From NCBI GenBank assembly GCA_032718475.1, contig JAUCBJ010008330.1, positions 1 to 64,000 on the forward strand: a stretch of DNA of 64,000 bases, read 5' to 3'. The DNA is from Nemertoderma westbladi (lineage: Eukaryota; Animalia; Xenacoelomorpha). Below are positions 1 to 57,352 of the stretch, piece by piece (position 1 is the first letter of the stretch; each line of letters opens with the position of its first letter). The notes below the pieces were generated by a model. That model was not told the DNA's origin, did no database searches, and saw only the letters and a program-made list of their open reading frames with translations. Both the position numbers and the translations under genes were made by a program.

Positions 1-2874
1 TAGTATTACAGACTAGGTTTAGTCACATAATACCGGTATATAATTTCAGCCTAGATTCATATAAATATATATAATAAGCCTACCTTAAATACCGGTATAC
101 AGCATACACTTATAGTATATATAAGTATGATTATATACTAGAATTAATTACAGAATACCGGTATATAATTTCAGCATAAATTTATATAAATAAATATAAT
201 AAGCCTACTATAAATACCGGCAATGTCAATTATTTTATAATAACTGAATTTCTGAATTTTAAAAGTTACTTTTCTTTACTTTATTACCGTTATCAAGAAG
301 TAGCCTAACTGATATTAAGAGCTAGTTGAGGTATAACAGGCCTACTATTTTATAAATCGGTTGGAGTTGATTTATAATATATTTGTACCCGTACAAGGGT
401 TTTTTGCCAATATTTGAAACAAATGTTATTGTTTCTGGTTGAGGGGGTCACTACACAAAAGCTAAACACTCTCAGTGGAGTGCTACCTGTTGGACACTAA
501 AACAAATAATTCTACTTGACTAAGTTACTTATTACTACAAATTACTTACAATTATTGTGTGAGATTACAATCTCTAAATAAACACCAAAAGGTTACACGT
601 ACAAATTTTAGGGTAATTTTACAGGGAATCTACAAACCAGTCTAACAGGGAGTTAGAATTTCTGGTTATTACAAATGGACAGGATACTACGGTATTTGAA
701 AATAATAAAGCAGTAGTAAATACACCGTGTTGTCTAGATAAGAAAATACCACCGTCTGACGACTTATAGTCTTTTTGCTATACAGCACTATAAGTACTAC
801 GTTATGTACCCGGAGTGTCCTTACCTAGAAGTTAATTACCGCAGCCTACCAGAGCTAACGTGCCTATTAACCACTTTAAAACACAAATATACTGTCTACA
901 AACTAAATTACTTTCGGAAAGCACTGTACACTAAACCCTAAATTAGGTACAAGTACTTACATAACAAATAACCAGCAGTTAAATATACTTGAACAGCTAA
1001 AAGAACCACGGCATCTGCTGGAGTGACTAGGGCATAAAATCACCAGTCTTTACCTACGCCAAGCAGCCCTGATGTAGTACCGGGGTTAATTTAACTATAA
1101 CGGTATGTATAACAAGCACAATTACTGTAGGAATAAACTTTGGGTAGTGTAGGTTGCGACTACTTGCATAAACTCTGAATAATAAATAATACGCTACCCG
1201 TGCAGACTATACAAACAAAATGCAAACCAAATGCTGGCAGACTACTGTCAAGCCCAAATAAACTACAGTATATGCAGACTCCGAAATGGTTAGTTAGTAT
1301 GCGTTCTAACCGAGTAGTACAACTTATTCTTTCGGGGGGGGGGGGGGGGGGGATTTACCTTACAACTCAAGATGCCCCTACTTTCCTAACTAGTACTTTA
1401 TCGGACCTACACTCTACACACACTGCAATCTCTTCAAACTTAACAACAGCTAGACAACATCCAGCCTACAAATTATTTATACAATCTGAGCAGGCTTATA
1501 CGACCTCTGCTCAATATTACACTTACAGATAAATAAAACTGACAGAAATAAGTAAACCATACAAAGGAGTAAGGGGTGATCAATCCCTAATCCCCGAACA
1601 GCCTACAATATACAATATTTCACAATCGAACTAATACTGGTACCCGCAAGTACCGGTTTGGGTGGTTGGGCAGTTAGGCCTACAGGTTACCGTCCGACCG
1701 GTACATTCGAATTTATTGTCTACGTGCAATAAAGAAGTATAAACTATTACTGTTCGCGCTTTTAGACTTTTAGCAGTTTAACCCGCCAATTTTAGGTGTC
1801 TTCTAATTTATAAATCGACTTTAGCCTACGACAATTTATTATTACTGAAATAACATTAGCCGAAGCCAGTCTATGCGCGACCATTCACCCACTGTTAAGG
1901 GAGATTGGATTCGGATGCTTTGACTTATTATTGCGTTGTAGACCTACTGTATTACTCGATTGATCGTTACTATATAATCTCTGACAATATATTTACTTTC
2001 GGGGAAATATTAACAGTTCCTTTAGGACGTGGCGCTTTAAGTATAAAACAGAGTTATGACTTATACTAATCACAACTAGATGTCTATTGATTTACATAAA
2101 AGGCGCATTCATTAGGAGATGCTTTATTACCAGTCACATCACCGCACACAACTTCACACTGCTTCACACTGATCTGCTGACAGTTACTGAATTTGATCAT
2201 ATATAAGGAAGATAGCAGCTGACACCTGTAGGGATTATGAAATATCATTTAATTCACACAAAACCCACTATAATGTAAGTCGCAATTGCTACTGGTAACC
2301 TGTCCTCTAACCTTCAGTAATCAATAAGATTGGGGTTTTTTGGGTTCTTTATCGGTATTCTCCAAATATAACAATATATCCATCAACAGATATAACCATT
2401 AATAACAGACAGTAAAATAATGCAGTATGTAGTAAGATGATAAGTAAGTGAGCATTGTGAGCATTGTTGGTTTGGTAATAGTTTATGTTTCGATAATCAA
2501 AGGCATCTAATGTTCTGGCCAAAGTCTGAAACTTCTACAGAAGTACAGAAGAATCCTAAGCCGGTGTTCTGGCTTAGAAAAGATAAACACAACTACTACT
2601 GACATACACAGACTTGCTCGGTTTACATAGCTCTTTTCCAAGAAAAATGAAAATCGCTCTGATTGGCTGAGCCTAGCTGAGCCGAACAAAGAACACAGAG
2701 AACAAGGGAAAGTTCCACGTCAGCAAATCAGCTGGTAGATGTCGTCATCTGAGCTCCTCCAGCCTTTAGAGTATTTAAGCGCCTTGCGGAGAAAGTTGCT
2801 TGTTACGTCCGCCAAAGCACACATGCAGACATAGCAAAGAAAAATGGCTTTTTATGTCCGCAAAAGCTTTTACA
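1..2874 (-). mobile_element. BEL/Pao LTR retrotransposon copy A: 5' LTR plus non-coding leader; coding part lies left of the window
   Basis: Colinear with the leader and 5' LTR of copies B (30298-33726) and C (53713-56993); inverted homologue of copy D. Confidence 0.9.
1751..2874 (-). repeat. 5' LTR of copy A (~1124 bp)
   Basis: Plus strand starts TGTTCGCGC and ends CTTTTACA, like the TSD-defined LTRs of B and C; shares their conserved internal blocks. Confidence 0.88.
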
Positions 2875-5342: not shown

Positions 5343-6496
5343 TGTAAAAGCTTTTGCAGACATGCGGACAAGTCATTTTTCCCGCAATGCGCAGTGTAGG
5401 TGCTTTTGCGGACATAACAATTCATTTTTTCCGCAATGCGCAGAATACTCTAAAATAGCCCTAAATGTATTCAACGCCGTGACGGGAAGGAATCAGAGCC
5501 CCGATGACGAAATCTATCAGCTGATTCTCTGTGGACATGGAATTTTTCTTTGTTCTTCCTAGTCAGCCAATCAGAGCGATTTTCCCCCTTATGTCGAACA
5601 GAGGCCTATGGAAACCCGTGCAATTGTTTACCTTTTTCTGAGCCTCAGAACCGGCTTGGAATCTTCTGTACTTCTGTTGTGGAAGTTTCAGACTTTGGCC
5701 TAAACATCAAATGGCTTTGATTACAAGAACGTAGAACTATTAACAATTCAACTACCTTACTTGGATACACATTTCATAACTGCATTATGTAACACATACT
5801 GACTGTTCACCACATTATTTTACTTCTGTCATTAATTGTTGTTATGTTAATGGATATTGCTGTTATATTTGGAGAATACCGATAAATAATCATAAAACCC
5901 CCAATCTTCTTGATTACTGAAGGTGAGAGGAACAGGTTTACCGGTAGCAACTGCGACTTACATTATAGTGTTTTTGTGTGAATTAAATGCTATTTCATAA
6001 TCCCTACATGTGTCAGTTGCGATCTTCCTTATATATGATCAAATTCAGTGACGGTCGGCAGATCAGTGCGAAGTAGTGTGAAGTAGTGTGAAGTCGTGTG
6101 AAGTAGTGTGAAGGTTAATAAAGCATCTCCTAAAGAATGCGCTTTTTACGAAACTCTGTGGCCATCTAGTTGTGATTAGCATAAGTCATAACTCTGTTTT
6201 TATACTTAAAGCGCCACGTCCTAAAGGAACTGTTAATATTTCCCCGAAAGTAAATATATTGTCAGAGATTATATATTAACGATCAATCCAATAATACAGT
6301 AGGTCTACACTGCAATCACTATCAAAGCATCCGAATCCAGTCTCCCTTAACTGTGGGTGAAAGGTCACGCACAGACTGGCTTCGGCTGATGTAACTTCAG
6401 TACATTAAATAATTGATATAGGCTAAAGTCGATTTATAAACAAAAGGACAACTAAAATTGGCAGGTTAAACTGCTAAAGGTCTAAAAGCGCGAATA
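5343..6496 (+). repeat. 5' LTR of copy D (~1154 bp)
   Basis: Starts TGTAAAAG; ends GCGCGAATA (mutated from GCGCGAACA); CCAAT box near 5566. Confidence 0.88.
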
Positions 6497-8253
6497 TTAA
6501 TAGTTTTAAACTCTTGATTGCACAGTAGACAATAAATATATTTGTCTAATGTTCTGGTAAGAACAATAATAGATTTTATAGTTTCTTTAATGCACTGTAG
6601 GCAATAAAGTCGAATGTACTGGTCGGACGGTAAACTGTAGGCCTAACTACCTAACCACCCGAACCGGTACTTACCGGTACTAGTATTATTTCGATTGTGA
6701 TATATTGTATATTGGTAGGCTATTTAAGAGAGTAGGGACTGTACACCCCTTATTTCTTTTAGAGCTTATTTAAAACTGTCAATTTTATTTATCTGTAAGT
6801 GTAATATTGAGCAGAAGGCGGGTAAGCCTGCTCAGATTGTATAAATAATTTGTAGGCCGGATTGTTGTCTAACTGTTGTTAGGTCTGAAGCGATTGCAGT
6901 GTGTGTAGAGTGTCTGTCCGAAAAAGTGCTAGTTAGGAAGGTGGGGGCATCCAGTGTTGTAAGGTAAATCCCCCCCGAAAGAATAAGTCATACTACTCGG
7001 TTAGAACGCCTACTAACTAACCATTTCGGAGTCTGCATATACTGTAGTTTATTTAGGCTTGACAGTAGTCTGCCAGCATTTGGTCTGTATTTTATTTAAA
7101 TAGTCTGCACGGGTAGCGTAATATTTATTATTCAGTGTCTATGGAAGTATTCCAACCACCAACTCCCCAAGTTTATTCCTACATTAATTGTGCTTGTTAT
7201 ACATACCAATATAGTTAAATTAACCCCTGTACTACATCAGGGCTGCTTGGCGTAGGTAAAGACTAGTGATTTTGTGCTCCGGTCACTCCAGCAGATGATA
7301 CCGTGGTTCTTTTGGCTGTTCAAGTATATTTAACTGCTGGTTATTTGTTTTATAAGTACTTGTACCTAATTTAGGGTTTAGCGTACAGTGCTTTCCTAAA
7401 GTAATTTAGTGTGTAGGCAGTATATTTGTGTTATAACGTGGTTAATAGGCACGTTAGCTCTGGTTGGCTTCGGTAATTAACCTCTAGGTAAGGACACTCC
7501 GGGTACATAACGTAGTACTTATAGAGCTAAGACTATAAGTCGTCAGACGGTGGTATTTTCTTATCTGGACAACGCAACTTACTTACTACTACTTTATTGT
7601 TTTTCCAATACTGTAGTTTCCTGTCAGTTTGTAAGATCCAGAAATTCTAACTCCTTGTTAGACTGGTTTGTAGATTTCTTGTAAAATTACCCTATAAATT
7701 GTACGTGTAACTTTTAGTGTTTATTTAGAGATTGTAATCTCAAACTGTAATTGTAAGTAATTTGTAGTGATAAGTAACTTAGTAAAGAAGAATTATCTGT
7801 GTAGTGACTCCTTAACCAGAAATAATAACATTTATTTCAAACATTGTCAAAACCCATTGTACGGGTATATATATATTTATAAATCAACTCTCAATCAGAT
7901 TTATAAAATAGTAGGCCTGTTATACATCAATTAGGTCTTAATATCAGTTGGATTACTGCTTAATAACAGTAATAAAGTAAAGGGAAGTAACCCTAAAATT
8001 AAGAAATTCAGTTATTATAAAATAATTGACATTACCGGTATTTACGGTAGGCTTATTATATATATTTATATAAATTTAGGCTGAAATTATATACCGGTAT
8101 TCTGTGACTAATCCTAGTCTATAATAATACTTATATATACTATGGGTGTATACCGGTATTTACGGTAGGCTTATTATATATATTTATATAAATTTAGGCT
8201 GAAATTATATACCGGTATTCTGTGACTAATCCTAGTCTATAATAATACTTATA

Positions 8254-17336: not shown

Positions 17337-18542
17337 TGTACGCGCTTTTGAAGACCTTTAGCAGTTTAACCTGCCAAAATTTATATGTCTTTTGGTTTAT
17401 AAATAGACTTTAACATATGACAAGTATTTAATACCAATAAACACAACATTAGCCGAAGCCAGCCTAGTGCGCGTCCATTCACCCGCTGGATATACCCGGG
17501 AGACTGGATTCGGAGGGCTTAGATTGTTATTGCAGTGTAAGCTTACTGTATTATTCGATTGATCGTTAATAAATAATTTCTGACCAATATTATTCACTTT
17601 CGGGAAATATTAACAGTTCCTTTAGGACGTGGCGCTCTATCTAGGTAAACAGAGATATGACTTATACTAAACACAACGGTAAGTCAGTAAGGCTTATGAT
17701 TCACGTATGAGGCGCATTCTTTAGGAAATGCTTAGTTATCAGTCAAAATCATGCACACTACCGGTAACGCACAATACTGCACACTAATCTGCCGACCGTC
17801 AATGAATTTTATCATACATAAAGAGAACAGTAATTGACTCATGTAGTGCTTATCAAATAGCATTAAATTCACTACAAACCACGATAATATAAGTCGCAAT
17901 CGCTATATGTAACCTGTCTCTCTAACCTGTAGTGTATCAAGAAATTGGGAAATTTGGGTTATTTATCGATGTTCTCCAAATAATAATATTCAACCAACTG
18001 ATACAAATAATAACAACAGTAAAAAGCATTAAGACGGTAGGTTAAGATTATAACAATATAAGATTGTACCGCTGCGCTACTGCGCTGATAAGACTGATAA
18101 GACTGATAACAGTTATACGCTCTATAATCTAAGCCTACTAATGTTTCTTCTAAAGTCTGAAACGAATTGACTCTAGAGCCGGTGTTCTTGGCCTAGATAG
18201 AAACAACAAAACTATAACACAGAAAACTATAAGACTGAACACTCCTAGCACGATCTGTAGAATATCTCCACATCGACAGTAAAAATCGCCCTGATTGGCT
18301 GTTAAGCTAAACAAAGAACCATGTGTCCAACGGCCATTTCCATGCCAGCAACCAGCTGTTAGATGTCGTAATCTGAATCATCAAGGCTACACTGTGCTAG
18401 AGGATTTGACGCATTGCGGGTTTTGTGCCTTGCCATGTCCGCCAAAGCACACATATAGAAGAATGACTTTTATGTCCGTTAAAACACCTACAACGGTACT
18501 TTGCGGGCAAGGGGACTGATTATATCCGCAAAAGCTTTTACA
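17337..18542 (-). repeat. 3' LTR of copy B
   Basis: Direct repeat of 32521-33726 with about 9 substitutions counted by eye. Confidence 0.97.
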
Positions 18543-18620
18543 CCGCTCCCAGAAAATGGGATTCAAGTCTATAAATATACAAAAATCACAGTTTCTAATA
18601 TACGTAAATACTCTAAACAG

Positions 18621-30297: not shown

Positions 30298-32520
30298 ACT
30301 TAGCTATACAGTTGAATGCTTACTGCTATAGTTACAGTTAAAGCAAGTCTAGTAATTCAGTATTGACCGTAATTTATTACAGTATATTAGAATACCGGTA
30401 TACACTTATAGTATATATAAGTATGGTAGACTAGGTTTGTCGCAGAATACCGGTATATAAATTTTAGCACAAATATATATACATATAATAGGCCTATCGT
30501 GAATACCGGTATGCAGTTTACACTTATAGTATATATAAGTATAATTATGAACTAGAATTAATTACAGAATACCGGTATGTTTTCAGCCCAAATTTATAGA
30601 AATAAATATAATAAGCCTATGGTAAATACCGGTATGTCATTTATTTTAGAATAATTGAATTTCTGAAGTTTTAGGGTTACTTGGTTACTTTAACTTACTT
30701 TATTACCGTTATTTAAGCAGTAGCCCAACTGATATTGAGACCTAATTGTTGTATGGCAGGCCTACTATTTATAAATCGTTTGAGTTGATTTATAATATAT
30801 ATATACCCGTTTAAAATGGGTTTTGTCAATATTTGAAATAAATGTTATTATTTCTGGGGGGAGTCACTATACAGAAGCTGTGCGCTCTCAGTGAAGTGCT
30901 ACTTATTGGACACTAAAACAGATAATTCTAATTTACCTAAGTTACTTAATACTACAAATTACTTACGATACGGGTGAGATTAATTCTCTAATTAAACACA
31001 ACAAAAATATTACGTACGAAATTTTAGGGTAATTTTACAGGGAAACTACAAACCAGTCTAACAAAGGGTTAGAACTTCTGGTTATTACAACAGACAGGGT
31101 ACTACGGTATTTGAAAATAATAAGTAGTAGTAAATATATTGTGCTGTCCAGATAGGAAAATACCACCGTCTGACGACCTATAGCCGTATCGCTATAGGTA
31201 CTACATTATGTATCATGGAGTGTTCCTACCTGGAAGTTAATTACCGCGGACTACCAGATCCAACATGCCTATTAACCACTTTACAACACAATACACTGCC
31301 CGCACACTAATTACTTTCGGAAAGCACTGTACACCAAACCCTAAATTAGGTACAAGTACTTATTAAAAACAGATAACCAGCAGATAAATATACTTGAACA
31401 GTTAAAAGAACCACGGCATCTGCTGGAGTGACTGGAGCACAAAGTCACCAGTCTTTACCTACGCCAAGCAGCCCGTGTAGTACCGGGGTTAATTTAACTA
31501 TAACGGTATGTGTAACAAGCACAATTACTGTAGGAATAAACTTGGGGACATGAATGTTGCGAATAATCGCATAAACTCTGAATAATAAATATTACGCTAC
31601 CCGTACAGAATACTCAAACAAAATACAAACCAAACGCTGGCAGACTACTACCAAGCCTAAATAAACTACAGTATGTGCAGATTCCGAAATGGTTAGTTAG
31701 TATGCGTTCTAACACGGTAGTACGACTTATTCTTTAGGAGGGGATTGACCTTACAGCTCTGGCTGCCCCAACTTACTAACTGGCACTTTATCAGACAAAC
31801 TCTACACACGCAGCAATCTCTTCAGACCTAATAATAGCTAGACAACAATCCAGCCTACAAAATATCTGAGTAATAACTATTACGGTACCTGAACAGACCA
31901 CACAAACAAACACAGACTAAAACGCTGGCAGACTACTATCAAGCCTAAATAAACTACAGTATGTGCAGATTCCAAAATGGTTAGTTAGTATGCGTTCTAA
32001 CACGGTAGTACGACTTATTCTTTAAGAGGGGATTGACCTTACAGCTCTGGCTGCCCCAACTTACTAACTGGCACTTTATCGGACAAACTCCACACACGCC
32101 GCAATCTCTCCAGACCCAACAACAGTCAGACAACAGTCCAGCCTACAATTATCTGAACAATCTGAGCAGACTTACACGTCTTCAGCTCAATATTAACTTA
32201 CATGTAAATAAAACCGACAGAAATAAGTAAAATCTCAATAAAAAACCAGGGCTGCAGTCCCTGATTAAATACTAAGACCTACCGGTATACAATAATCAAA
32301 ATCGAATAATACTAATGTACTTATACTGGAAGTACCGGTTAGGACAGTTGGGCCTACAGACCTACAGCAGTACCGGTTCAGACAGTTAGGCCTACGGACC
32401 TACAGCAGTACCGGTTCTGGCAGTTGGGCCTACGGACCTACAGCAGTACCGGTTCAGGTTTACCGGTCGACCGGTACTTTCAACTTTATTGCTTACTGCA
32501 ATAAAGATAATAACTGTTAT

Positions 32521-33726
32521 TGTACGCGCTTTTGAAGACCTTTAGCAGTTTAACCTGCCAAAATTTATATGTCTTTTGGTTTATAAATAGACTTTAACAT
32601 ATGACAAGTATTTAATACCAATAAACACAACATTAGCCGATGCCAGCCTAGTGCGCGTCCATTCACCCGCTGGATATACGCAGGAGACTGGATTCGGAGG
32701 GCTTAGATTGTTATTGCAGTGTAAGCTTACTGTATTATTCGATTGATCGTTAATAAATAATTTCTGACCAATATTATTCACTTTCGGGAAATATTAACAG
32801 TTCCTTTAGGACGTGGCGCTCTATCTAGGTAAACAGAGATATGACTTATACTAAACACAACGGTAAGTCGGTAAGGCTTATGATTCACGTATGAGGCGCA
32901 TTCTTTAGGAAATGCTTAGTTATCAGTCAAAATCATGCACACTACCGGTAACGCACAATACTGCACACTAATCTGCCGACCGTCAATGAATTTTATCATA
33001 CATAAAGAGAACAGCAATTGACTCATGTAGTGCTTATCAAATAGCATTAAATTCACTACAAACCACGATAATATAAGTCGCAATCGCTATATGTAACCTG
33101 TCTCTCTAACCTGTAGTGTATCAAGAAATTGGGAAATTTGGGTTATTTATCGATGTTCTCCAAATAATAATATTCAACCAACTGATACAAATAATAACAA
33201 CAGTAAAAAGCATTAAGACGGTAGGTTAAGATTATAACAATATAAGATTGTACCGCTGCGCTACTGCGCTGATAAAACTGATAAGACTGATAACAGTTAT
33301 ACGCTCTATAATCTAAGCCTACTAATGTTTCTTCTAAAGTCTGAAACGAATTGACTCTAGAGCCAGTGTTCTTGGCCTAGATAGAAACAACAAAACTATA
33401 ACACAGAAAACTATAAGACTGAACACTCCTAGCACGATCTGTAGAATATCTCCACATCGACAGTAAAAATCGCCCTGATTGGCTGTTAAGCTAAACAAAG
33501 AACCATGTGTCCAACGGCCGTTTCCATGCCAGCAACCAGCTGTTAGATGTCGTAATCTGAATCATCAAGGCTACACTGTGCTAGAGGATTTGACGCATAG
33601 CGGGTTTTGTGCCTTGCCATGTCCGCCAAAGCACACATATAGAAGAATGACTTTTATGTCCGTTAAAACACCTACAACGGTACTTTGCGGGCAAGGGGAC
33701 TGATTATATCCGCAAAAGCTTTTACA
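32521..33726 (-). repeat. 5' LTR of copy B
   Basis: TG..CA ends; direct repeat of 17337-18542; followed by the TSD. Confidence 0.97.
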
Positions 33727-40345: not shown

Positions 40346-41109
40346 CTAGCTACCAACAATAAAACTAGCCACCAAGGAAAACACTAGCTACCTTCAAATA
40401 CACAAGCTACCAACAATAATACTAGCTACCAAGGAAAACACTAGCTACCTTCAAATACACAAGCTACCAACAATGATACTAGCTACCAAGGAAAACACTA
40501 GCTACCTTCAAATACACTAGCTACCAACAATAATAATAGCTACCAAGGAAAGCCCTAGCTACCTTCAATTACACTAGCCACCAACAATAATACTAGCTAC
40601 CAAGGAAAACCCTAGCTGCCTTCAATTACACTAGCTACCAAGAATAATACTAGCCACCAAGGAAAGCCCTAGCTACCTTCAATTACACTAGCTACCAACA
40701 ATAATACTAGCTACCAAGGAAAACACTAGCTACCTTCAATTACACTAGCTACCAACAATAATACTAACTACCAAGGAAAAGCCTTACCTTCAAATACACT
40801 TAAGCTATCAATAATAATACTAGCCACCAAGGAAAACCCTAGCTACCTTCAAATACACTAGCTACCAACAATAATACTAGCTACCAAGGAAAACCCTAGC
40901 TACCTTCAAATACACTAGCTACCCACAATAATACTAGCTACCAAGGAAAACCCTAGCTACCTTCAAATACACTAGCTACCAACAATAATACTAGCTACCA
41001 AGAAAAGCCCTAGCTACCTTCAAACACACTATCTACCAACAATAATACTAGCTACCAAGGAAAACCCTAGCTACCTTCAATTACACTAGCTACCAAGAAT
41101 AATACTAGC
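40346..41109. repeat. 57-bp tandem satellite (3 x 19-bp subunits starting CTAGCTACC), left part
   Basis: Unit CTAGCTACCAACAATAATA-CTAGCTACCAAGGAAAACC-CTAGCTACCTTCAATTACA; resumes in register at 56994. Confidence 0.95.
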
Positions 41110-42246
41110 TGTTCGCGCTTTCAGACCTTTAGCAGTTTAACCTGCCAAATTAGGATGTCTTCTAGATAATAGATAGTCTTTAGCCTACGACAAATATTTG
41201 ATACACTACATTAGCCGAAACCAGTCCATGCGCGATCATTCACCCGCTGGATATACCCGGGAGACTGGATTCGGAAGCCTAATCGTATTGCGGGATAGAC
41301 CTACTGTATTATTCGACTGATCGTAATATATATAATCTCTGACAATATTATTCACTTTCGGGAAATATTAACAGTTCCTTTAGGACGTGGCGCTCTAAAT
41401 ATATAAACAGAGTTATGACTTAAACCAGACGCAACGGGATGGCTATAGATTCACGTATATGGCGCATTCTTTAGGAGATGCTTCGTTATCAATCACAATC
41501 ATACACAATACTGCACAATGCTGCACACTAATCTGCCGACCTTCACTAATTTTAGTCACATATAAGGAGAACAACAGACAATACGTGTAGGGCCTATAAA
41601 ATAGCATTAGATTCACTTCAAACCACTTAATGTAAGTCGCAATCGTTATATGTATCCGGTCTCTCTAACCTTTAGTATATCAAGAAGATTGGGGTGTCTG
41701 ATTGTTTATCAGTATTCCAAATATAATGTTCCATCAACAAATATAATGAATAGCCGACAGCAAAAGCAGTAATGTTAAGGTATGAATGATTAAGTTATGG
41801 ATAGATAACGGATATACGTTCTATAATTAAGCCTACTAATGTTAAGCTAAAGACTGAAACACGGAGGTTCCACGCCGGTGTTGTAGGCTGTGGAAAAATC
41901 ACATACTGACTCACTTCCCTAGTTTCTATATACCATCTCCAACACAGAGGCAAAAAACGCTCTGATTGGTCGACCGAACAAAGAGAGAACAAAGAACAAA
42001 GAGATGTTCTACGTGGCAATATCAGCTGTTAGCCGTCGTCATGGTATCTACACTGTTTCAAGAGGATCCGGCTTATTGCGTCATAGAATTGCTAATCATG
42101 TCCGCTAAAGTACACATACAGAAGAAATGGCTTTTATGTCCTCTAAAACAACAATACAGTAAGGACACGGCCTTTTATGCCGGTTAAACCAACTACAGAG
42201 TACTTTACGGGGAACATAACCGGCTAATTACGCAAAAGCCTTTACA
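41110..42246 (-). repeat. 3' LTR of copy C
   Basis: Direct repeat of 55857-56993 with about 5 substitutions counted by eye. Confidence 0.97.
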
Positions 42247-42324
42247 CCGCTCCCAGAAAATGCGATTTAAGTCTATAAAATATAACAAATCACAGTTTCT
42301 AAAATATAAAGATACTCTAAACAG

Positions 42325-45491: not shown

Positions 45492-48400
45492 TTAAGTTGG
45501 GGAGTCCCTAGATGTTTGTTGGATTAGGGAGGTGGTCGTGGGAAGAGTATCTTGCCTCCCATAGTTTCCGGAGAGTTCTCTGTCTCTTTCCAGTAAACAT
45601 AAGCGACCAACTGGGCGATTGAGCTGCTGCGTCTCGAAGACAATTCCCAGTTTCTTGAAGTTACGTCGCATGACGACGAGTTCTACCGATCGCACCAAAC
45701 CGTCATCCGAGATGTGAGTCTCGATGATACGACCTGTCTGCCACCGCTTACGTGGAAGATCTACATCCACAATAAGAACCATGTCTCCAGCGCTGACATT
45801 TTCTTGCTGCGCAAACCACTTAGTACGAAGTTGTAGCGTGGGCAGATAATGTTTTTCAAAATGATCAGCGAAACGACGGGATAACAACTGCATGAGTTGC
45901 CAAGTTTGCCGGCATTATTCGTCTCCGTCTGTGATTTCCGATTGTGGGAGCATGGCTACAGGTTTCTTTAGTAGGAAATGCGCGGGTGTTAGCGCTTCCA
46001 GGGAATCGGGACTCGATGAGACTGGCATAAGCGGTCTCTCGTTGAGATAGGCGGCGATTTCCTCCATTAACGTCCGCAAAAGTTCGTCGGTGAGATACGC
46101 GCGGCAAGGCACTATAAAGTGAAATGCTGTCTTCACACTTCTTATTAATCTCTCCCAACTTCCTCCCCACCAAGGGGCGTCGGCGGCGTTGAAGGTCCAG
46201 CTAGACGCTGTTACTCGTAGCTGATCGTCCACCTGTCTTTGGTTCCAATCTTTGACGTAAGCTTTGATTTCATTGTTGGCACCAATGAAGTTTGTTCCCT
46301 TATCAGATCTCATCGTGTTACTAGTGCCAAAGCGAGCGATCTGTCGTCGTAAACTTAATAGAAAGCTGTTGGTAGATAAATCGTTCACCATGTCGAGATG
46401 GATAGCCCTACAAGTCATACAAACAAAGATGACACACCATCTCTTGACTATAGTCCTAGCACGATATACTTCAATAGGGCCAAATAAATCCACACCGGTA
46501 TTAGTAAAGGGTGGTTCATAGAAGCTTACTCGTTCCCTAGGTAATTCTGCCTCTCGCTGTGTTAAAGGCCTACTGAATGCTTTCCTACAGGGTATGCAGT
46601 TCCTAAGAACTTGGTTCAGAGCTCTACGGGGTTTATAAAAATAATAGCGAGTTCGAATTTCGCTAAGAACTCGTTCCCTACCAGCATGATAAAGTTTGCT
46701 GTGAACGTCTACAATCATCTTGACTTGTATTTCAAGATTTCTAATGAGTATGGGAAACTTAGTGTCAAAGGATAGTGGAGCATTCGTTAATCTTCCTCCA
46801 ACACGTATCAACCCATCTATCATTGTGCTAGAGAAACGATCCCTTAAGCGCATCTGTGGATTTCTCAACAACAGGAAATACTTATCGGAATCCTCATAGC
46901 ATTGCAGGAGTCTCGGCATCTGCTTGTTGGTTTCTTCATGCTCCTGATAACTAATCTTCTCCTTCAGAAACCTGTCGGGTATCTTATATTTGGGAAGATC
47001 TTTAATAACATGGACCTGCACTGATGTTATTGGAGCGGTATCACTTTTGGTCTTCATCCCGGAGTAGTGATGGTGAAAACATCTCTTTAAATATGTAACG
47101 GCCTTACAGAGCCGATTCCAGGAACTGTAGTGATGTATCGCTCTCTGCAGAAGAGGTGAGAGTCCTTGCGAGACGTCTGGTATTCCAGATTTCCAATCCT
47201 TCTCACGGATTTCCACAACAAGTTTATTGGTGGCTGTGGGTTTCTGATCCAAAGCGTCGTCTCTGGAAATATGTAGTACAGACAGATCTACCATGGGTTT
47301 GAATAACTTCGATTTACTCGCCCGAGTTTTAGGTTTGACTTTCTCCACTCCCTTGGCCTGTCTAATCTCTGCTGTAGTAAGATGAGGAGGCCATTCTTCT
47401 TCTTCTTTGTAGAGGAAGTCGGGTCCACCTAGCCAGTCTGGAGTATCTACCAGTTCTTGTGGAGTTGCTCCCCTGGAGGCGATGTCTGCTGGATTAATCG
47501 TTCCGGGGCAATGTCTCCGTTGATCCATCGTTGTGCGACTGAGTATAATGGCTACTCTGTTGGTAACGAAGACGCTGAACTGACAGACTTCATTGGTTAT
47601 ATACTCCAACACGAGTAAAGCGTCGGTCCAATAGACAGTTTTCTCCAGGGGATAGTCGATCTGTTCTGTTACATTCCGGCCGATGGCTGTAGCGTATAGA
47701 GCCGCTTTTAACTCCGCTCGAGGAACTTTCAACTTATTGTTTATCAATGCCTTAGAAGTAACCAAGGCGACTTTGATTCCGTCCGGAGTTTCCACCCTTA
47801 GGTAGGCTACTATACCTATTCCCATATCGCTGGCGTCTCCAAATACATGGAGTTGATAGGAATACGTAGGGAGAACATGACCAAAATATGAACGGGAAAT
47901 TATAAAGTTCTCGATGGCTGGTAGAGAATCTTCCCATTTCATCCACTTCTTTAATAATTCTCCCTTAAGTGGATCGTCCCATGAGTGGTTTTCAAGCCAC
48001 ATTTGTTGTACTAAACTCCGAGCAATCAATATAACTGGGCTAATAAATCCCAATGGATCGAAATAAGTGCTCAGGATACTTAAACAAATCCGTTTAGTCC
48101 GAACTGGATTATCTCGCTGTTTTAGTTGGAAAAACAGGATATCTCTTTCGGTGTCCCATTTCAAACCAAGGGTCTTAGTTTCTGGGAGATCATCCTTTAT
48201 TAGATCCAGGTCTTTTGCTCCTCGATCTTCTACCGGGATCGACTCCAGAAACTCACGGGAGTTGCTGGTGAATTTAGTTAATCGAAATCCACCTCTTTTT
48301 AAGCACTCTACCGTTCCTTTAGCGACATCGATGGCTTCTTCGACTGATGGAAGGGACTTTAGATTGTCGTCCATGTATATATCCCGCTTAATGTTGTCAA

Positions 48401-51400
48401 TCACCTCTTTAGAGAAGGCGTCTCGGTTGTCATCCGCAGTGGTGCGCACCACGGAACAGGCGTTTGAAGGGCTCGAGATTATCCCAAAAGCCTGGATGGT
48501 CATCCAGTACTCCACCGGTTTCTGATTGAGGTCTCCTTCAGGCCACCACAGAAATCGTAGGCAGTCTCGATCCCTATCCAGCGCTTTGACTTGTAAGAAC
48601 ATGCCTTCTATATCTGAGGCGAAAGCAATGGAATATTGTCTTAATCTTAAAAGTATTCCCAACAATGATTGGAGTAAGTTGGGTCCGGGTAGCAATTCAG
48701 AATTAAGGGATTGGCCCATATAGAGGGCGGAGCCGTCAAACACCACTCGTACCTCATGTGGTTTACCGGGTTTGGGAACGTAATGGTGAGTTAAATAATA
48801 CGTTCTCTCAGTTATAGGTGTTTCTTCCGGTACTAGCTCCGCATATCCCTTGCTAATAAACTTCTTCAACTGCGTTTGATACATTTCTTTAGCTGAAGAA
48901 TTTGCCGTAAGGCGTCGATGTAGTTGAGCAATTCTTTTCTCCGCCAAGGGTCTGTTGTTTACGAACTTTGGTTCTCGCTTTCGGAAAGGTAGACCGATCT
49001 CATATCTACCTTGATCTTTAAGAAAACGTGTAGTTGTCTCTTGGATCTGCTTGGCTATTTCTTCCTCTACCGATATGGGCCTTATCGTAGGAATTGGGCT
49101 CTACAGCCTCTTGAGTAAAGAATCGTACGGCATGTTCATCCCGAGTCTTGGCATTATATCGTTCAATGACGTCATTAAGTTCGTCGTTATAGTCGTCTCG
49201 TTCTGATGGAAGAAGGAGCTGACATAAGTTCACTTGGTTTTGCCAAGTCTCGTTTTCCTTAAGGAGATCGATGGTATTCTCCTCATCGAAAAGTTGGTGG
49301 ACATCGTCATTATCTGAGGAGTATGGTGTTCCCTCAGTTAGATCATCTAACTCACTGCCCTCGACTTCCCATTCTCTCACTTGACATACCTGGTCTTTCG
49401 GTAATCTTTCCATGAGAGTTCTACGGGAAGGGCCAGTAAAGTACCAACCCACTCTAGTTCTTCCCGCATAAGCTTGTAGTGGTCGCGGTTGAGCGGGCCG
49501 TTTCTCCAATGTCTCGAGCGCTTCATGCGCGTTTTGACCGATGAGTATTTGCACTCCAGGGTAATCGATGTTGAATCTAGGTATTTCCAGCTGCTGGGTG
49601 AAATCGTCCTCATCCCAGTTATAAGGTTCTACTTGAGTGGTAGCGAAGTTCTTTATCGCCACCATTTTTACTGACCTTATGCTATGTTCTCCTAGTTCAT
49701 CCTGGGGGGTGGACAACGCTCCTACATAATAATCCGCGATTACTGTAGATTTCCAAACCTGCATAATTCCTGACATGTTTAGCTTAGTTCGGAACTTGGG
49801 TTGTCCAGCAAAGATGTCTTCGGCTAGTTCTTTGTCGATGAATGTTCCTGTACTACCGGAGTCAAGGAGGGCGTTCACTACATAACTCCTTTTAGGTCCG
49901 TGGACCCTTACCTGTACTACAGGAAATTCTCGGATTCCTACATTGGAAGATGGCGCTTTCCAAGATGGTTGTCGATCAGAAGTAGTTAGGGTGAGGTCGC
50001 TGTCTGTATCTTTTTCATACGTGAGTGCTCGATACACTGCGGTATTTATCATGTAACAGGATTCGTTTTCGTCGGAGAACTCGTCCGTATAGAATCCTTC
50101 CATCTCAGATTGATCAGTGTCGTTCACATCACTGAATTGGACATGTAGTTCGGAATCACTTACCTGACTCGGACTATTTCGCTCGAATTCAGTGTGCAAC
50201 AAGATATGATGTTTCGCACCGCACTTTGCACACCTTGTGTCGGAGTAACAGGTTCGCCGTTGGTGTCCTTGTCTGAGGCAATTATAACACAACCGCTTAT
50301 CCCACATGACTTCCCGTCTCTCCGCTAATGATTTCTTCAGGAATTCATCACACATATTTAAACGGTGAGTCCCGTCACATAGCGCACATTTCGGTTTGAT
50401 GTTACTTACCTTATTTTGAATAACATTGTGCACACTCGTTCTTTCTTCGGGCTTTCTCACCTGAATTATCTTGGGAGACGTAGGAGGAGTTTTTCTTACC
50501 TGTTCTCTCCTGTCATTGGTTCGAGACTTGAATTTACTTACCGGTTCTTTAGGCGTTTTATTGACATAATAAGATCTTTCAGTGTCTTTCCCGCTATCCT
50601 CTCCTTGAGAAGTCTGGCTTTCGCCGTCGTCTGTATAACACACTGGTGTTACCTTTCTCCTAGAGACGGGTTTCTCACTTACCTTGTTTTCCGGTGTCTT
50701 CTCTCTGGACTGCTTTATGAGCTGTAATTTCACTTCGCCATCCAAGAATGACATGAGATCAGCCATGGTAGGGTCTCGTTGTTGTTGTTCCATCATATAT
50801 AACACTTTCTTGTCCCAGCGTGTACCTACTCCACCCTTCGGTAAAGTAGAAGCCACTGCTCTAATAACCATAGCACTCTGATATTCATGAGACTTACCTA
50901 GCCAATCTAATTGTCTGCAGATCTCCTGAATCTCATCGTAAAACTCTATAATCCCGCTGCTAATAAACTTTCGGGGCACTACCAACTTTGCATACAAATA
51001 CCCAGCTATGTTATTCCTATTACCATACCTGATGTTTAGTGTATCCCAAACTTGTCTTAATCCGTCTGGATGTCCAATAAACTTTAACGCCATTAGCTTG
51101 GGAGATCCTTCCAAGCACTCGATGAGGAATCTAAGTTTCTCTCCATTAGATAGTACAGAGTTCTGTATGTTATCTTTGTAATATTCATTAAAAGGTAACC
51201 ATTTCATCTCATCTCCATTGAACTTGACGATCTCTCCCACCTTTACCGCTTGCCGGGCTTCGGTTCTAGCCATTTGACGCGTAAAACTTTCTTGGGCCAT
51301 CGTGTTATTCAATATCGAGTTATCGGTATATAAATTTCTCGGATTATGATCAGGTCTATAGGGAATATCATTATCAACAGGTCTATAATTACCCTTAATA

Positions 51401-53712
51401 GGGTTCACTATAGGAGTTTCTACTTCGCTAGCAGTATATATGCGTGTAGGCTCCACACCTTGCGCATGAGATACTTCAGACCTAACAGGTTGACACATTG
51501 TTACCGGGGGTGGTGGTATACCCTTTTGTAAATTTACTAATTTATCGCGTTCTAGCGCGATACTTTGCTGCACTTCTTGCAACTCTAACCTACTTTCCTT
51601 TACGGTTCCCTTTAACTGTTGAACAGTCCCTTCTAACTCTCGGACCTGTTGGGAGGAGCGCACTCGATTCTCCTCCATCTTTCCGAGGAGAATATCCATC
51701 CCCCGCCGTCTCTCGTCTACCCAATCAACCGCCGAAGCGGGATCCGCCAACGACGTAGCGGGCAGACGAGGGACTACGGGCGATATATCCTTTATATTTC
51801 GCTCGGAGTCCAGGACCGACACTGTTTCAGGGGCTGTTCCTATAGGCACAGATAATTTGGTGCTGTGTAAAGGGAATTTAAAGGTAGGTTCTGGGAGTAC
51901 AGGTGTCTCTATCACCGAAGGGGTGATTTCAAGAACAGGCCTAATTATTTCAGGCTCATCTACTATAGTAGGGAGTCTTTCTATTTTAATTATTTGGTCT
52001 GTGGGTTCTGTACTACCTAAGTTTGTGTTATTTAGTTGCCTTCTAACAGCTAGAGGCAAATCAGGCAATTTCTGATGGTGGGACATTCTTTTACGTCTAC
52101 TTAGACGAGATCTATTTCCTCCGCCTTCAGGATCGGTGGTATCGCCTTCCTCAGATGATGTATAACCTTGTCTTTTGGGAGTAGATCGATTCATCATCTG
52201 CATATTACTAGCTGTTAACTGTTTATTAAAGTTATCTTGCCTCTCTTGAAGATTTTCCAATTCTAGTTGGGCAGTCTCTTCAGACGCCTTTCGTTCTGCT
52301 TCTGCCACTGCAGCTGCCAAAGCCGCTTTTCTTTCTGCTTCTGCCACTGCAGCTGCCAAGGCCGCTTTTCTTTCTACCTCTGCCACTGCAGCCTTTCTTT
52401 CTGCTTCTGCCACTGCTGCTGCCGCTGCTTTTCTTTCTGCTTCTGCCACTGCAGCTGCCAAGGCCGCTTTTCTTTCTGCCTCTGCCACTGCCGCTTTTCT
52501 TTCTGCTTCTGCCACTGCTGCTGCCGCTGCTGCTATCTTTCTGTCTTCTATACGTTTTTTCTTTACTTGTTCTTCTTGAACCTTAGTGAGGCGGATGCTT
52601 TCATCAAATTTAGCTTGGTTCGCAGCTCTCATATCCACATCGATGGCGTCCAACACACGCTGGGCTGCTTCACTATTAGGGCTAAGTCCCTCTAGCCTTC
52701 TCCTCAGCTCTTCATCACCTACAAAACGTTGATAGTCCGACAGATAGATATCAATAGCATCCCTCTTATGCGGTTTCTCTGCCGTCGCTTCACTCTCCAC
52801 TTGGGAAAATGTAGCATCTGTTGATTCTCCATGGGTTGAGCGCTCATCTAGCTGGGCTTTCCACTGAGCCGTTCCTTGAACCTGGAGACTCACCCTTTGA
52901 AACCAAGTCTTTACAGCAACTTGCAACGACGTGTCTTGTCTTCTTTTAGAAGCCTCCTCAAAGGCTGATAAGATTAGCCTGATTCGTAGAATTCTTTCTC
53001 TAACTTGATAAAGCAGTTGTCCCTGCTCTTGAGGTCCTTGGGGTTGTTGAAACAGTTGTTTTTCTACTCGCTCCATAGAGCTTACGAATCCCTGTACTTA
53101 TCCGGCTGCGGACCTCTTCCACACAGCTGGATCGACGGTTTCCTTGGTTACTCCCATCCTGTGTATATCTTCCCAGGCAGCTTCTGATAAATCAAACGGG
53201 AGTCCGGGTCCGGGGAAGTTCCATTGCGACTCGACAATAGACTTCAGTTCTTCCCTTGTATATCCCGCATAACTATCTTTAGTCGATCGCTTAATTCTCG
53301 CCCAATCTATCTGGTGTTCTTCCACCGCAATCAATAACCTAGTGAGTATGGCTGCAGGAAGGATGAGAAGGGGATCCGAATAAACCGCATTCGTCATCTT
53401 TGCTCCGCGCTCGGGTGTCAGCTCTACAGTATCCTCACTACTGGAGCTGTCGGGCCGTTGAGAAATAAGTTCTTGGCTCGCGGGTTGTTGTTGTTCCGCT
53501 GCTTCTTGGTCCCGCTTGACCTGAGCTCGAGTGCCTATGATAGACCTACGGTGTTGGACCAGCCTAGGTTCTGATATTACTACTGGGGGAATGATCTTTC
53601 TTACAGTAGGAGGTGAGTTGAACTTCGGTCCTACACGTTCCACACTCCTGTCTGGGTCACATATGGTTGTATCTAGGAGACTGTCTGACAGGTTTTGCTT
53701 TGTGTCAGACAT
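45492..53712 (-). pseudogene. gag-pol polyprotein of copy C: one ancestral ORF now broken by two frameshifts and one stop
   Basis: Pieces 53712-53098, 53076-49018, 48947-45915 and 45893-45492 carry gag knuckles, LLDSGS, YMDD, RNase H and integrase motifs. Confidence 0.96.
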
Positions 53713-55839
53713 GTTGGTTTGTACAGTTGAATGCCTACTGCTATATTACAGTTTAAGCAAGTCTAGTAATTCAGTATCACTGTTAGCCTAGTAATTAATT
53801 ACCGATACTGCTACTCAGTGTAGCGTGATATCTATATAATATATTAGAATACCGGTATGCTTATAGTATATATATAAGTATTATTACAGACTAGAATTAA
53901 TTACAGAATACCGGTATAATTTCAGCCTAAATTTATAGAAATAAATATAATAAGCCTATGGTAAATACCGGTATGTCAATTATTTTAAATAATTGAATTT
54001 CTGAATTTTAAGGGTTACTTGGTTACTTTAACTTACTTTATTACCGTTATTTGAGCAGTAGTCCAACTGATATTGAGACCTAATTGTTGTATGGCAGGCC
54101 TACTTATTTATAAATCGTTTGAGTTGATTTATAATATATATATATACCCGTTTAATGGGTTTTGTCAATATTTGAAATAAATGTTATTATTTCTGGGGGA
54201 GCCACTACACAGAAGCTGTGCGCTCTCAGTGGAGTGCTACTTGTTGGACACTAAAACAAATAATTCTAATTTACCTAAGTTACTTAATACTATAAATTAC
54301 GTACAATTCGGGTTGAGATTACAATCTCTAAATAAACACAAAAAAATTACAAATACACAAATACGAATTTTTTAGGGTAATTTTACAAGAAGTCTACTAA
54401 CCAGCCTAACAAAGGGTTAGAATATCTGGTTATTACAACGGACAGAGTACTACGGTATTTGAAAATAATAAGTAGTAGAAAATATACTGCGTTGTCCAGA
54501 TAGAAAAATACCACCGTCTGACGACTTATAGCCGTATCCCTATAAGTACTACGTTATGTATCACGGAGTGTTCCTACCTAGAAGTTAATTACCGCGGTCT
54601 ACCAGAACCAACGTGCCTATTAACCACTTTACAACACAAATATACTGCTTACACACTAATCACCTTCGGAAAGCACTGTACACTAAACCTTAAATTAGGT
54701 ACTAGTACTTGTACAACAAATAATCAGTAGTTAAAAATACTTGAACAGCTAAAAGAACCACGGTATCTGCCGGAGTGACCAAAGCACAAAATCTCCAGTC
54801 TTTACCTACGCCGAGCAGCCCTGATGTAGTACCGGGGTTAGTTTAACTGTAACGGTATATATAACAAGCACAATTACTATAGGAATAAACTTGGGGATAT
54901 GAATGTTGCGAATAATCGCATAAACTCTGAATAATAAATATTACGCTACGCGCACAGACTACTCAAACAAAATGCAGACCAAATACTGACAGACTACTAT
55001 CAAGCCTAAACAAACTACGGTATATGCAGACTCCGAAATGGTTAGTTAGTATGCGTTCTAACCTAGTAGTACGACTTATTCTTTCAGAGGGGGTTTACCT
55101 CACAGCACTGGAAGCCCCTACGTTCCCAACTGGCACTTTATCGGACATACACTCTACACACACCGAAATTTCCTCAGACCTAAGAACAGCCAGACAACTA
55201 TCCAGCCTACAAATTATCTAAATAAGAATTATACGCTACCTGTACAGACTACACAAACAAAGTACAGACCAAACGATGGCAGACTACTATCAAGCCTAAA
55301 TAAACTACAGTATATGCAGACTCCGAAATGATTAGTTAGTATGCGTTCTAACCTAGTAGTACGACTTATTCTTTCAAAGGGGGTTTACCTCACAGCACTT
55401 GAAGCCCCTACGTTCCTAACTAGCACTTTATCGGACAGATGCTCTACACACACTGCAATCCGTTCAGACTTAACAACAGTTAGACAACAGTCCAGCCTAC
55501 AAATTATCTGTACAATCTGAGCAGGCTTACACGCCTTCTGCTCAATATTGGTCTATAAATAAATAAAACTTGACAGAAATAAGTAAAATCTCAATAAAAA
55601 ACCAGGGCGGCCGTCCCTGATTAATTATTAAGGCCTACCGGTATATAATTATCAAAATCGAATAATACTGCTGTACCTGTACTGCTGTAGGTACCGGTCC
55701 GGGTGGTTAGGTAGTCAGGCCTACTGGGTACCGGTTGCCGGTACTTCAGCTTTATTGCCTACTGCAATACAGAAGCTATATCCGTTATTGTTCTTACCAG
55801 AACAATATTAAACTGTATTTATTGCCTACCCTGCAATCC

Positions 55840-55856
55840 GAACGTATATCCGTTAT
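55840..55856 (-). other. Non-tRNA primer-binding site of copy C, complementary to LTR 56552-56568
   Basis: 17-nt exact inverted match abutting the LTR end; equivalents at 1739-1750 (A), 6497-6508 (D) and 32510-32520 (B). Confidence 0.8.
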
Positions 55857-56993
55857 TGTTCGCGCTTTCAGACCTTTAGCAGTTTAACCTGCCAAATTAG
55901 GATGTCTTCTAGATAATAGATAGTCTTTAGCCTACGACAAATATTTGATACACTACATTAGCCGAAACCAGTCTATGCGCGATCATTCACCCGCTGGATA
56001 TACCCGGGAGACTGGATTCGGAAGCCTAATCGTATTGCGGGATAGACCTACTGTATTATTCGACTGATCTTAATATATATAATCTCTGACAATATTATTC
56101 ACTTTCGGGAAATATTAACAGTTCCTTTAGGACGTGGCGCTCTAAATATATAAACAGAGTTATGACTTAAACCAGACGCAACGGGATGGCTATAGATTCA
56201 CGTATATGGCGCATTCTTTAGGAGATGCTTCGTTATCAATCACAATCATACACAATACTGCACAATGCTGCACACTAATCTGCCGACCTTCACTAATTTT
56301 AGTCACATATAAGGAGAACAACAGACAATACGTGAAGGGCCTATAAAATAGCATTAGATTCACTTCAAACCACTTAATGTAAGTCGCAATCGTTATATGT
56401 ATCCGGTCTCTCTAACCTTTAGTATATCAAGAAGATTGGGGTGTCTGATTGTTTATCAGTATTCCGAATATAATGTTCCATCAACAAATATAATGAATAG
56501 CCGACAGCAAAAGCAGTAATGTTAAGGTATGAATGATTAAGTTATGGATAGATAACGGATATACGTTCTATAATTAAGCCTACTAATGTTAAGCTAAAGA
56601 CTGAAACACGGAGGTTCCACGCCGGTGTTGTAGGCTGTGGAAAAATCACATACTGACTCACTTCCCTAGTTTCTATATACCATCTCCAACACAGAGGCAA
56701 AAAACGCTCTGATTGGTCGACCGAACAAAGAGAGAACAAAGAACAAAGAGATGTTCTACGTGGCAATATCAGCTGTTAGCCGTCGTCATGGTATCTACAC
56801 TGTTTCAAGAGGATCCGGCTTATTGCGTCATAGAATTGCTAATCATGTCCGCTAAAGTACACATACAGAAGAAATGGCTTTTATGTCCTCTAAAACAACA
56901 ATACAGTAAGGACACGGCCTTTTATGCCGGTTAAACCAACTACAGAGTACTTTACGGGGAAAATAACCGGCTAATTACGCAAAAGCCTTTACA
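55857..56993 (-). repeat. 5' LTR of copy C
   Basis: TG..CA ends; direct repeat of 41110-42246. Confidence 0.97.
56652..56716 (-). promoter_or_regulatory. Predicted LTR core promoter: CCAAT box, TATA-like box, TCAGT initiator
   Basis: Sense CCAATC (56716-56711), GTATATAGAA (56680-56671), TCAGT (56656-56652). CCAAT and TCAGT lie at equivalent positions in A (~2600) and B (~33420). TATA-to-initiator spacing is short; unverified. Confidence 0.55.
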
Positions 56994-57232
56994 CTAGCCA
57001 CCAAGGAAAACCCTAGCTACCTTCAATTACACTAGCTACCAACAATAATACTAGCTACCAAGGAAAAGCCTTACCTTCAATTACACTTAAGCTATCAATA
57101 ATAATACTAGCCACCAAGGAAAACCCTAGCTACCTTCAATTACACTAGCTACCAACAATAATACTAGCCACCAAGGAAAACCCTAGCTACCTTCAATTAC
57201 ACTAGCTACCAACAATAATACTAGCTTCCAGG
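56994..57232. repeat. 57-bp satellite, right part
   Basis: Same unit as 40346-41109. Confidence 0.95.
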
Positions 57233-57352
57233 AAAATTAATTTCACCCCCGATATTTCGTTGCAAGCGAAATTTTCACTCTCGATATTTTTACGGGTTTA
57301 TAGAGGTATCGATTAAACTAAATTAAGAGTAGGCCTATTAATAATAACTATT

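Follow-up and report, generated by a model that had tools for sequence, protein, structure and literature searches.

The window, a stretch of 64,000 nucleotides from Nemertoderma westbladi contig JAUCBJ010008330.1, holds four copies (A-D) of a single BEL/Pao family. Copies B (33726-17337) and C (56993-41110) are full length and lie on the minus strand, the full-length elements spanning 15.9-16.4 kb, and copies A and D are partial, with one LTR each that was positioned by alignment. Copy C is bounded by a 5' LTR of 1137 bp (55857..56993, minus strand), which begins with TG and ends with CA, and by a 3' LTR (41110..42246, minus strand) that differs from it at 5 positions in 1137, or 0.4%; the two LTRs of copy B (5', 32521..33726; 3', 17337..18542; both minus strand) show 9 differences in 1206, or 0.7%. 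In a preliminary description of this DNA, the LTR ends of B and C were placed by means of target-site duplications (TSDs), and for both copies an LTR pair and a 5-bp TSD were indeed found. The 5' LTR of copy D (5343..6496, plus strand), which was placed by alignment, ends with TA rather than CA. A short purine-rich run precedes the 3' LTR, and the LTR length and TSD fit those of Belpaoviridae (0.2-1.2 kb, polypurine tract, TSD).

Two coding frames were identified in copy C, namely a gag-protease frame (49018..53097, minus strand) with DUF1759, Cys/His knuckles and a protease motif, and an RT-RNase H-integrase frame (45915..49100, minus strand) with the Pfam domains Peptidase_A17 and Integrase_H2C2. 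The domain order DUF1759, Peptidase_A17 (the Pao RNase H region), Integrase_H2C2 (a zinc finger) and DUF5641 is that of Belpaoviridae, and PF05380 occurs in all 120 homologs among the matches listed. By sequence inspection, the four acidic residues of RNase H are present in B and C. The gag-pol region is broken in both of these copies at different places, and a programmed frameshift between protease and RT was therefore rejected. The nearest proteins among the matches listed are 33-43% identical and belong, where a source is named, to various animals, most of them marine; the RNase H region had no match in a sequence search of the PDB. The family is abundant in contigs of one organism, and a search of metagenome contigs for an exact 23-nt U5 motif returned no matches.

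Several further features accompany these copies. A region of about 3.3 kb between the integrase and the 3' LTR (42247-45490 in C; 18543-21830 in B) is conserved between B and C, with up to 89% identity; it holds broken frames, of which the two longest are without a Pfam match and one has Cys/His-rich stretches, and it is read as a putative extra gene. The leader of about 2 kb contains a 290-bp tandem repeat in C and B (54926-55509 and 31577-32156, respectively). Copy C itself sits inside a 19/57-bp tandem array (40177-41109; 56993-57236). A Tc1-like transposase frame within copy D and a separate RT frame (RVT_1, DUF6451) were also found (8387-9535, 13295-14608).

Pairing between the PBS and the LTR

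The term PBS is used here for the first bases after the 5' LTR, and P denotes the LTR partner segment that is homologous across the copies. The preliminary description held that no copy carries TGG after its 5' LTR, that each PBS is the reverse complement of a segment of its own LTR, and that the base just 3' of that segment is C; all three observations were reproduced in all four copies. The PBS of A (1739..1750, minus strand) pairs with P at 2475..2486 (minus strand) over 12 bp, and that of B (32510..32520, minus strand) with P at 33290..33300 (minus strand) over 11 bp. In copy C the PBS (55840..55856, with a core at 55846-55856, minus strand) adjoins the LTR and pairs over 17 bp with P at 56552..56568 (minus strand), so that the predicted 3' end of the primer lies at 56552. 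The PBS of D (6497..6508, plus strand) pairs with P at 5732..5743 (plus strand) through 9 Watson-Crick pairs, one G-U and 2 more pairs. The longest Watson-Crick run that a PBS forms with its own LTR, counting from the base next to that LTR, is thus 12 in A, 11 in B, 17 in C and 9 in D (12 with one G-U); with the other three LTRs the runs reach only 5-7. Within the own LTR the best match always falls on the homologous segment, which lies 695-769 nt upstream of the LTR end. A control with shuffled sequences, as the preliminary description had suggested, was run: dinucleotide-shuffled LTRs reached the Watson-Crick run in 2 (A), 19 (B), 0 (C) and 271 (D) of 20000 cases, and with G-U allowed in 940, 697, 0 and 828 of 20000, respectively. 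No tRNA genes were found in the window.

Past the perfect helix, copies A, B and D have an internal loop of 2-3 nt and then 3-6 further in-register pairs. The 17 bp of copy C overstate the primer signal, because pairing at positions 15-17 is common to all four copies, strong variation among genomic copies affects positions 12-14, and a second PBS in the same copy pairs for 12 nt only. This second PBS (55777..55788, minus strand) is a 12-nt match to P that follows a spacer ending like the LTR, and a diverged second PBS-like sequence is present in D (6566..6577, plus strand). The whole unit of PBS plus hairpin is doubled in C (55745-55856) and D (6497-6610) and single in A and B. The doubled units of C and D are split by a common spacer with the LTR-like end; the second unit of C has kept its match to its own P, and that of D has drifted. 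One explanation of the doubling would be that priming alternates between the two sites. The spacer and the sequence just downstream have similar contig depth, a comparison that does not amount to a copy number.

Variation in the genome was read from unphased contigs, none of which span P to PBS. Several alternative letters and small indels occur at PBS positions 12-14, and two variants (at positions 6 and 8) are listed for positions 2-11. This ragged edge fits re-copying of about 11-12 nt, whether the primer is short or long. At position 6 the share of the non-C letter does not match between the two sites, being 87-95% at the partner and 9-12% at the PBS, and this comparison is not decisive either way, because the denominators of the tallies differ, the PBS set being biased to C-like contigs and the partner set including 3' and solo LTRs. 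In the preliminary description, re-copying of the PBS from its primer was given as the origin of the co-variation. The ragged edge is compatible with that account, but co-variation alone does not prove it, since P also co-varies with an internal partner, PBS* (described below), that is not re-copied.

Related loci (107) were fetched with a pol alignment, and 40 of these had a flanking direct repeat. The 5' LTR end was resolved in 20 of the 40, which were kept, the other 20 being cut by contig ends or unclear. TGG lies within 1 nt of the LTR end in 8 of the 20 (two families), these tRNA-using relatives retaining a near-constant TGG site, and it is lacking in 12. A contiguous self-match of at least 10 nt was found in none of the 20 resolved relatives. 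In four of the 12 relatives without TGG (L029, L036, L043 and L089, representing three families), the PBS matches a GT-AG junction inside the own LTR for 10-11 nt, a result reached by 0 of 300 shuffled PBSs in each case, and in these three distant families the splice-junction partners begin at pyrimidine|A. L072 and L075 may resemble them at offset 1. In L033, L039, L041, L073, L074 and L100 the LTR end is resolved and neither TGG nor a spliced or contiguous self-match (8 nt at most) is seen. A profile of the LTR/leader alignment had no matches in the 107 related loci. In a crude tree of 88 out of 109 rows (21 rows with less than 70% coverage were left out), which contains no named reference elements of the Belpaoviridae clades (Pao, BEL, Tas, Suzu, Sinbad, Sparrow, Surcouf, Dan and Flow), the window family forms a long branch without close relatives. 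Sites without a tRNA match are therefore not peculiar to the window: they are widespread among these BEL/Pao elements, and the multi-helix architecture described below is seen only in the window family. Of separate note are 38 contigs (L070-L107) in bacterial or archaeal genome records that encode BEL/Pao polyproteins and probably represent host DNA in the assemblies.

Co-varying helices and the putative junction around P

All column pairs of the four-copy LTR/leader alignment (A3) were scanned for helices of at least 6 pairs kept in at least 3 copies, which yielded 147 candidates. The scoring was devised after the data had been seen, and the null consisted of 200 shuffles of columns within 40-column blocks. 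P:PBS ranks first and a helix termed M1:M1' second among the 147, and neither score was reached in the 200 shuffles. Six helices with co-variation score at least 26, compared with a mean of 0.39 and a maximum of 2 in the 200 shuffles. The remaining high-ranking helices join PBS* to P (with the C that follows it), U5 to the leader (a stem in two halves), U5 to M2, and the second part of PBS* to the 5' half of P. As single helices, their scores were reached in 117 of 200 shuffles for M2, in 34 and 61 for the U5-leader halves, and in 9 and 171 for PBS*, and none of these helices stands singly above the best shuffled one. In the five helices that were named, pairing holds in 97.5% of 163 cells, and double changes occur at 12 of 41 pairs (5 of the 11 aligned pairs in P:PBS), against 26-45% pairing and 0-2 double changes in controls slid by 1-3 columns. 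The four copies fall into two close pairs, and the number of independent compensatory events is therefore small.

Three segments upstream of P pair with U5 (coordinates are those of copy C, minus strand). M1 (56592..56601) forms 10 pairs with M1' in distal U5 (55923..55932), with 2 double changes; M2 (56583..56589) forms 7 pairs with M2' in U5 (55955..55961), with 1 double change, in D; and M3 with its linker (56569..56582) forms duplexes of 8-11 bp with M3' in U5 (56021..56036). M3 is out of register in A3 and was excluded from the five-helix cell count; tested pairwise, its own U5 partner is the best in 3 of the 4 copies. The M1-M3 segments lie 18-58 nt upstream of the end of P, with M1 ending about 40 nt before it. 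When the M1-M3 block was paired with distal U5, shuffles did as well in 7 (A), 0 (B), 0 (C) and 0 (D) of 300, and the block binds its own element best in 3 of the 4 copies. The U5-leader stem comprises a 5' arm (56032..56047), with M3' right after it, and a 3' arm (55824..55839) directly after the PBS, and has 13 pairs with 4 double changes. The preliminary proposal of a longer structured primer is supported independently by these three co-varying helices upstream of P.

The terminal 25 nt of the LTR were rejected as the partner of M1, since they form a local hairpin and the compensatory change sits in a segment 63-79 nt from the LTR end. Individual folds of A and D predict a hairpin upstream of M1, which is weak in the consensus fold. 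A short CTAAAG-like motif that is complementary to M1 occurs about five times in the U5 of C (55857-56460), and these repeats may bind protein or offer alternative pairing. The final LTR bases (55860-55865 in C) can pair with an internal loop of U5 (55977-55982); this helix has a double change in B, is interrupted in D, and may form a pseudoknot where copying would begin.

PBS* (56200..56237, minus strand) is an internal second partner of P, which pairs with its parts at 56231-56237 and 56200-56207, and a conserved hairpin (56211-56228) lies between the two parts. PBS* has 3+3 co-varying columns, and its pairing with the P of the same element is the best in 4 of 4 copies. The helix spans the predicted cut site P|C and includes an invariant C-G pair just after the cut. 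The P:PBS* and P:PBS duplexes are mutually exclusive, as P cannot pair with both at once. The predicted strengths of the two are similar, which together with the position of the PBS* helix across the predicted cut site suggests that PBS* may serve as a storage state for P.

The spacing of these elements in C is tight, with 1 nt between the stem arm and M3', 0 nt between the PBS and the other arm, and about 4 nt between M3 and P. In the resulting model, M3:M3', P:PBS and the U5-leader stem would form a compact three-way junction, and M3 and P would therefore have to share one strand. With M2 and M1, the strand that carries P would reach at least 57 nt upstream of its end, and the modelled junction would favour a primer of at least 57 nt over an 11-mer of the Tf1 type. 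Whole-leader folding came out without P:PBS, for which 11 of 12 folds gave a pair probability of at most 0.14; the model contains pseudoknots, which the folding programs used cannot represent.

The putative transcript ends can be placed relative to P. A CCAAT box (56709-56716 in C) is conserved, and the predicted initiator TCAGT (56652..56656, minus strand) follows 60 nt after it. The distance from CCAAT to TCAGT is 60, 64 and 60 nt in C, A and B, and that from CCAAT to P varies from 164 to 192 nt; TATA-like motifs are weak. An initiator about 103-131 nt before the primer end, as first proposed, is thus borne out approximately in C (104 nt), A (127 nt) and B (132 nt), but has no counterpart in D, in which TCAGT is absent. 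P itself starts at pyrimidine|A, 11-12 nt from its own end, in all four copies (the A is 56562 in C). On the 3' side, a candidate poly(A) signal, GATAAA (56452..56457 in C, minus strand), is followed by CA 15-17 nt later and by a U-rich tract, as judged from sequence alone, and this set recurs 95-139 nt after P in all four copies. Given the position of GATAAA, the R region would run downstream of the cut.

The preliminary description left two options for the release of the primer, cleavage or a separate short transcript. The second has lost ground: a separate Pol III transcript ending at P is unlikely, because no T-run follows P in three of the four copies (A, C and D). Spliceosomal cleavage at P was rejected, as the next base is C rather than GT. 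A splice-junction primer, as in some relatives, is unneeded because P is contiguous, and copy A also lacks AG.

Source of the primer

The adjoining position of the PBS, the lack of a CCA complement and the double changes in P:PBS make a self-encoded primer the best reading, as was first proposed, and in some form such a primer appears very probable. For the more specific proposal that a long 5' fragment of the element's own RNA would prime reverse transcription in place of a tRNA, the chances are judged to be about even. Under this long-fragment reading, transcription would start about 100-130 nt before the end of P. PBS* would hold P at first, while M1-M3 zip onto distal U5 and the U5-leader stem closes around the PBS. 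Inside the particle, P would shift from PBS* to PBS to give the three-way junction, and the RNase H of RT would cut at P|C, as in Tf1, leaving a 3'-OH flush with the LTR end. The minus-strand strong-stop DNA of about 700-770 nt would jump via the R region, which would extend as far as a poly(A) site located some 110-160 nt past P. The minus-strand copy of the 3' LTR would then hybridise to the primer, RNase H would trim the latter to the 11-12 nt shielded by PBS RNA, and plus-strand synthesis would re-copy only these trimmed 11-12 nt, with a ragged edge at positions 12-14.

The same pairings can be accommodated by a short self-primer like that of Tf1, in which transcription would start at the A located 11-12 nt before the end of P, so that the mRNA would supply its first 11-12 nt as the primer. 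In copies A (12) and B (11) the perfect pairing ends at that A, the pyrimidine|A step recurs there in all four copies and at the start of the 10-11-nt splice-junction partners of the three distant BEL/Pao families, and M1 and M2 keep a fixed distance from it, as core-promoter elements would. The ragged PBS edge at 12-14 would fit run-off at a capped 5' end, and the addition of untemplated bases by Tf1 RT is described in the available text of PMC11042837. With this start site M1-M3 would belong to U3 and would pair with U5 only from the 3' LTR copy, a cyclisation like that of Ty1, in which the long-range CYC5-CYC3 pairing is needed for reverse transcription (PMC3681743, available in part). However, M3 and P would have to lie on the same strand for the three helices of the junction to meet, the PBS* helix takes in bases upstream of that A, no TATA box is seen at -30, and the CCAAT spacing points to the upstream TCAGT, so that a short primer of this type is considered rather unlikely. 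A different route to the same helices and junction would use the 3' LTR copy of M1-M3-P as the primer, the 3' end of the genomic RNA being cut or trimmed to P and tethered to U5, with R upstream of P. Two features could be read in its favour, each present in three of the four copies: a weak hexamer resembling a poly(A) signal, located about 23 nt before the end of P, and CA after P. However, the hexamer is missing in A, no conserved GU-rich element follows P, and a better-spaced candidate poly(A) signal lies downstream in all four copies. The LTRs leave no deciding footprint, because P is identical within the B pair and within the C pair, and priming from the 3' LTR copy appears improbable.

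The location of the cut site inside a co-varying helix, with an invariant pair just after it, together with the invariant long stretches and many conserved helices of U5, raises the question of whether the conserved RNA that follows P, some 550-700 nt long, catalyses the cut itself, cleaving P|C while PBS* holds P and then passing P to the PBS. Such a cut would leave a 3'-OH, like the cuts made by group I/II introns and RNase P. On the other hand, Rfam gave no match in any LTR at E up to 1 (one weak miRNA match lies elsewhere in the window), and no hammerhead or group I/II core was recognisable by eye, the likenesses to a hammerhead, a group I P7 and a group II domain V that were noticed not being conserved in all four copies. 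The RNase H residues are intact and cutting by RNase H has precedent, and the conservation could stem from packaging or translation; a catalytic origin of the cut is accordingly held to be very improbable, and the fuller picture of the LTR as a folded RNA of about 900 nt that would make its own tRNA-substitute primer, with a protein-free cut, decoy storage and a three-helix U5 clamp, is equally doubtful. If true, this self-cutting LTR RNA would represent a large ribozyme of a new kind, whose task is to prime reverse transcription. It is also conceivable, although very unlikely, that P:PBS is only structural or regulatory and that the true primer is a host tRNA fragment or other small RNA. The co-variation of P with PBS* implies that structural selection alone can give co-variation, and half-tRNA primers without TGG occur in Ty1/copia (PMC6317226, available in part). 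Against a host primer, the four PBSs differ at 7 of 12 positions, the first base included, which is difficult to reconcile with it because one primer re-copied in each cycle would erase such differences; the PBSs are also 73-92% A+T, and relatives that do use tRNA retain their near-constant TGG site.

Comparison with known elements and implications

The closest functional parallel is the Tf1/sushi group of Ty3/gypsy (Metaviridae), in which Tf1, Tf2 and Tj1 have, as in the window, a PBS that adjoins the LTR without a tRNA complement and pairs over about 11 nt with R-region sequence of the same element. Tf1 self-priming requires a U5 stem structure around the PBS, and the window family has such a stem between U5 and the leader. 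These three elements are described in PMC7175516, PMC4600332, PMC5341516 and PMC11042837 (available in part), the first three of which report that RNase H cuts out the self-primer. The first five bases of the PBS in B and C are those reported for Tf1 in the available part of PMC11042837, possibly by chance. The window elements differ from the Tf1 group in belonging to Belpaoviridae, with a polyprotein that is not that of a Ty3/gypsy chromovirus, and in the location of P, which is 695-769 nt from the LTR end. Moreover, the Tf1 primer is the first 11 nt of the mRNA, whereas the M1-M3 helices of the model point to at least 57 nt, and P of the window family has an internal second partner, with a tandem second PBS in C and D. 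The window family thus probably works like Tf1 self-priming without membership in the Tf1 group, with a longer multi-helix primer and a decoy site.

According to ICTV, BEL/Pao elements have an 18-nt PBS for tRNA-Arg or tRNA-Gly and genomes of 4.2-10 kb, and their replication is described as tRNA-primed and poorly understood (PMC8742986). The window elements share with Belpaoviridae the DUF1759 Gag, protease, RT, Pao-type RNase H, DUF5641 integrase, TG...CA LTRs and 5-bp TSD, but they are without a tRNA site, are 15.9-16.4 kb long and encode proteins 33-43% identical to the nearest ones. The departure concerns the priming statement, and the protein domains still place the elements in BEL/Pao. 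Self-priming is listed for Tf1/sushi, Tcn1 and the copia TAR lineage in the available part of PMC6317226, where for Ty1/copia TAR (Houba, Osr-1) and the plant Tcn1 it is deduced from LTR complementarity of at least 10 bp located 0-5 bp after the LTR. All four window copies show this degree of complementarity if the G-U pair of D is allowed; TAR and Tcn1 belong to other superfamilies, however, and the available text describes no extended primer-template helices or alternative partner for them. Osser, Bryco and Bianca are half-tRNA-primed Ty1/copia elements, and the variability of the window PBSs argues against membership in this class. Fungal GalEa elements, as described in the available part of PMC5445492, are PBS-less, with a hairpin and no self-match, and PMC3601003 and PMC5443660 (available in part) provide general context.

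A further likeness is to the Ty1 initiation complex, in that the primer region would be held by more than the PBS helix. The tRNA primer of Ty1 makes extended contacts beyond the PBS. In the window family, by contrast, the proposed primer is element-encoded and the extra contacts are in U5, brought beside the PBS by the U5-leader stem. No report of BEL/Pao self-priming was found in the literature searched, most subscription papers, Repbase notes and supplements lying outside that search, and a term search of PMC3118150, PMC554778, PMC6238403 and PMC12440569 revealed no discussion of PBS or priming; Repbase entries or PBS tables in supplements could already note non-tRNA sites in BEL/Pao. New here are the six co-varying helices of the four-copy scan, the internal second partner PBS* and the modelled three-way junction.

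A long, helix-clamped and decoy-parked primer would give the element its own equivalent of the tRNA-template initiation complex, and the compensatory changes already name the base pairs of interest. Annotation tools that seek a tRNA-complementary PBS would miss such elements or misplace their ends. A self-encoded primer, if true, would extend tRNA-free priming to a third LTR superfamily and would free these elements from the host tRNA supply and, presumably, from PBS-directed silencing by tRNA fragments. As 12 of the 20 resolved distant relatives also lack TGG, self-encoded priming may be common.
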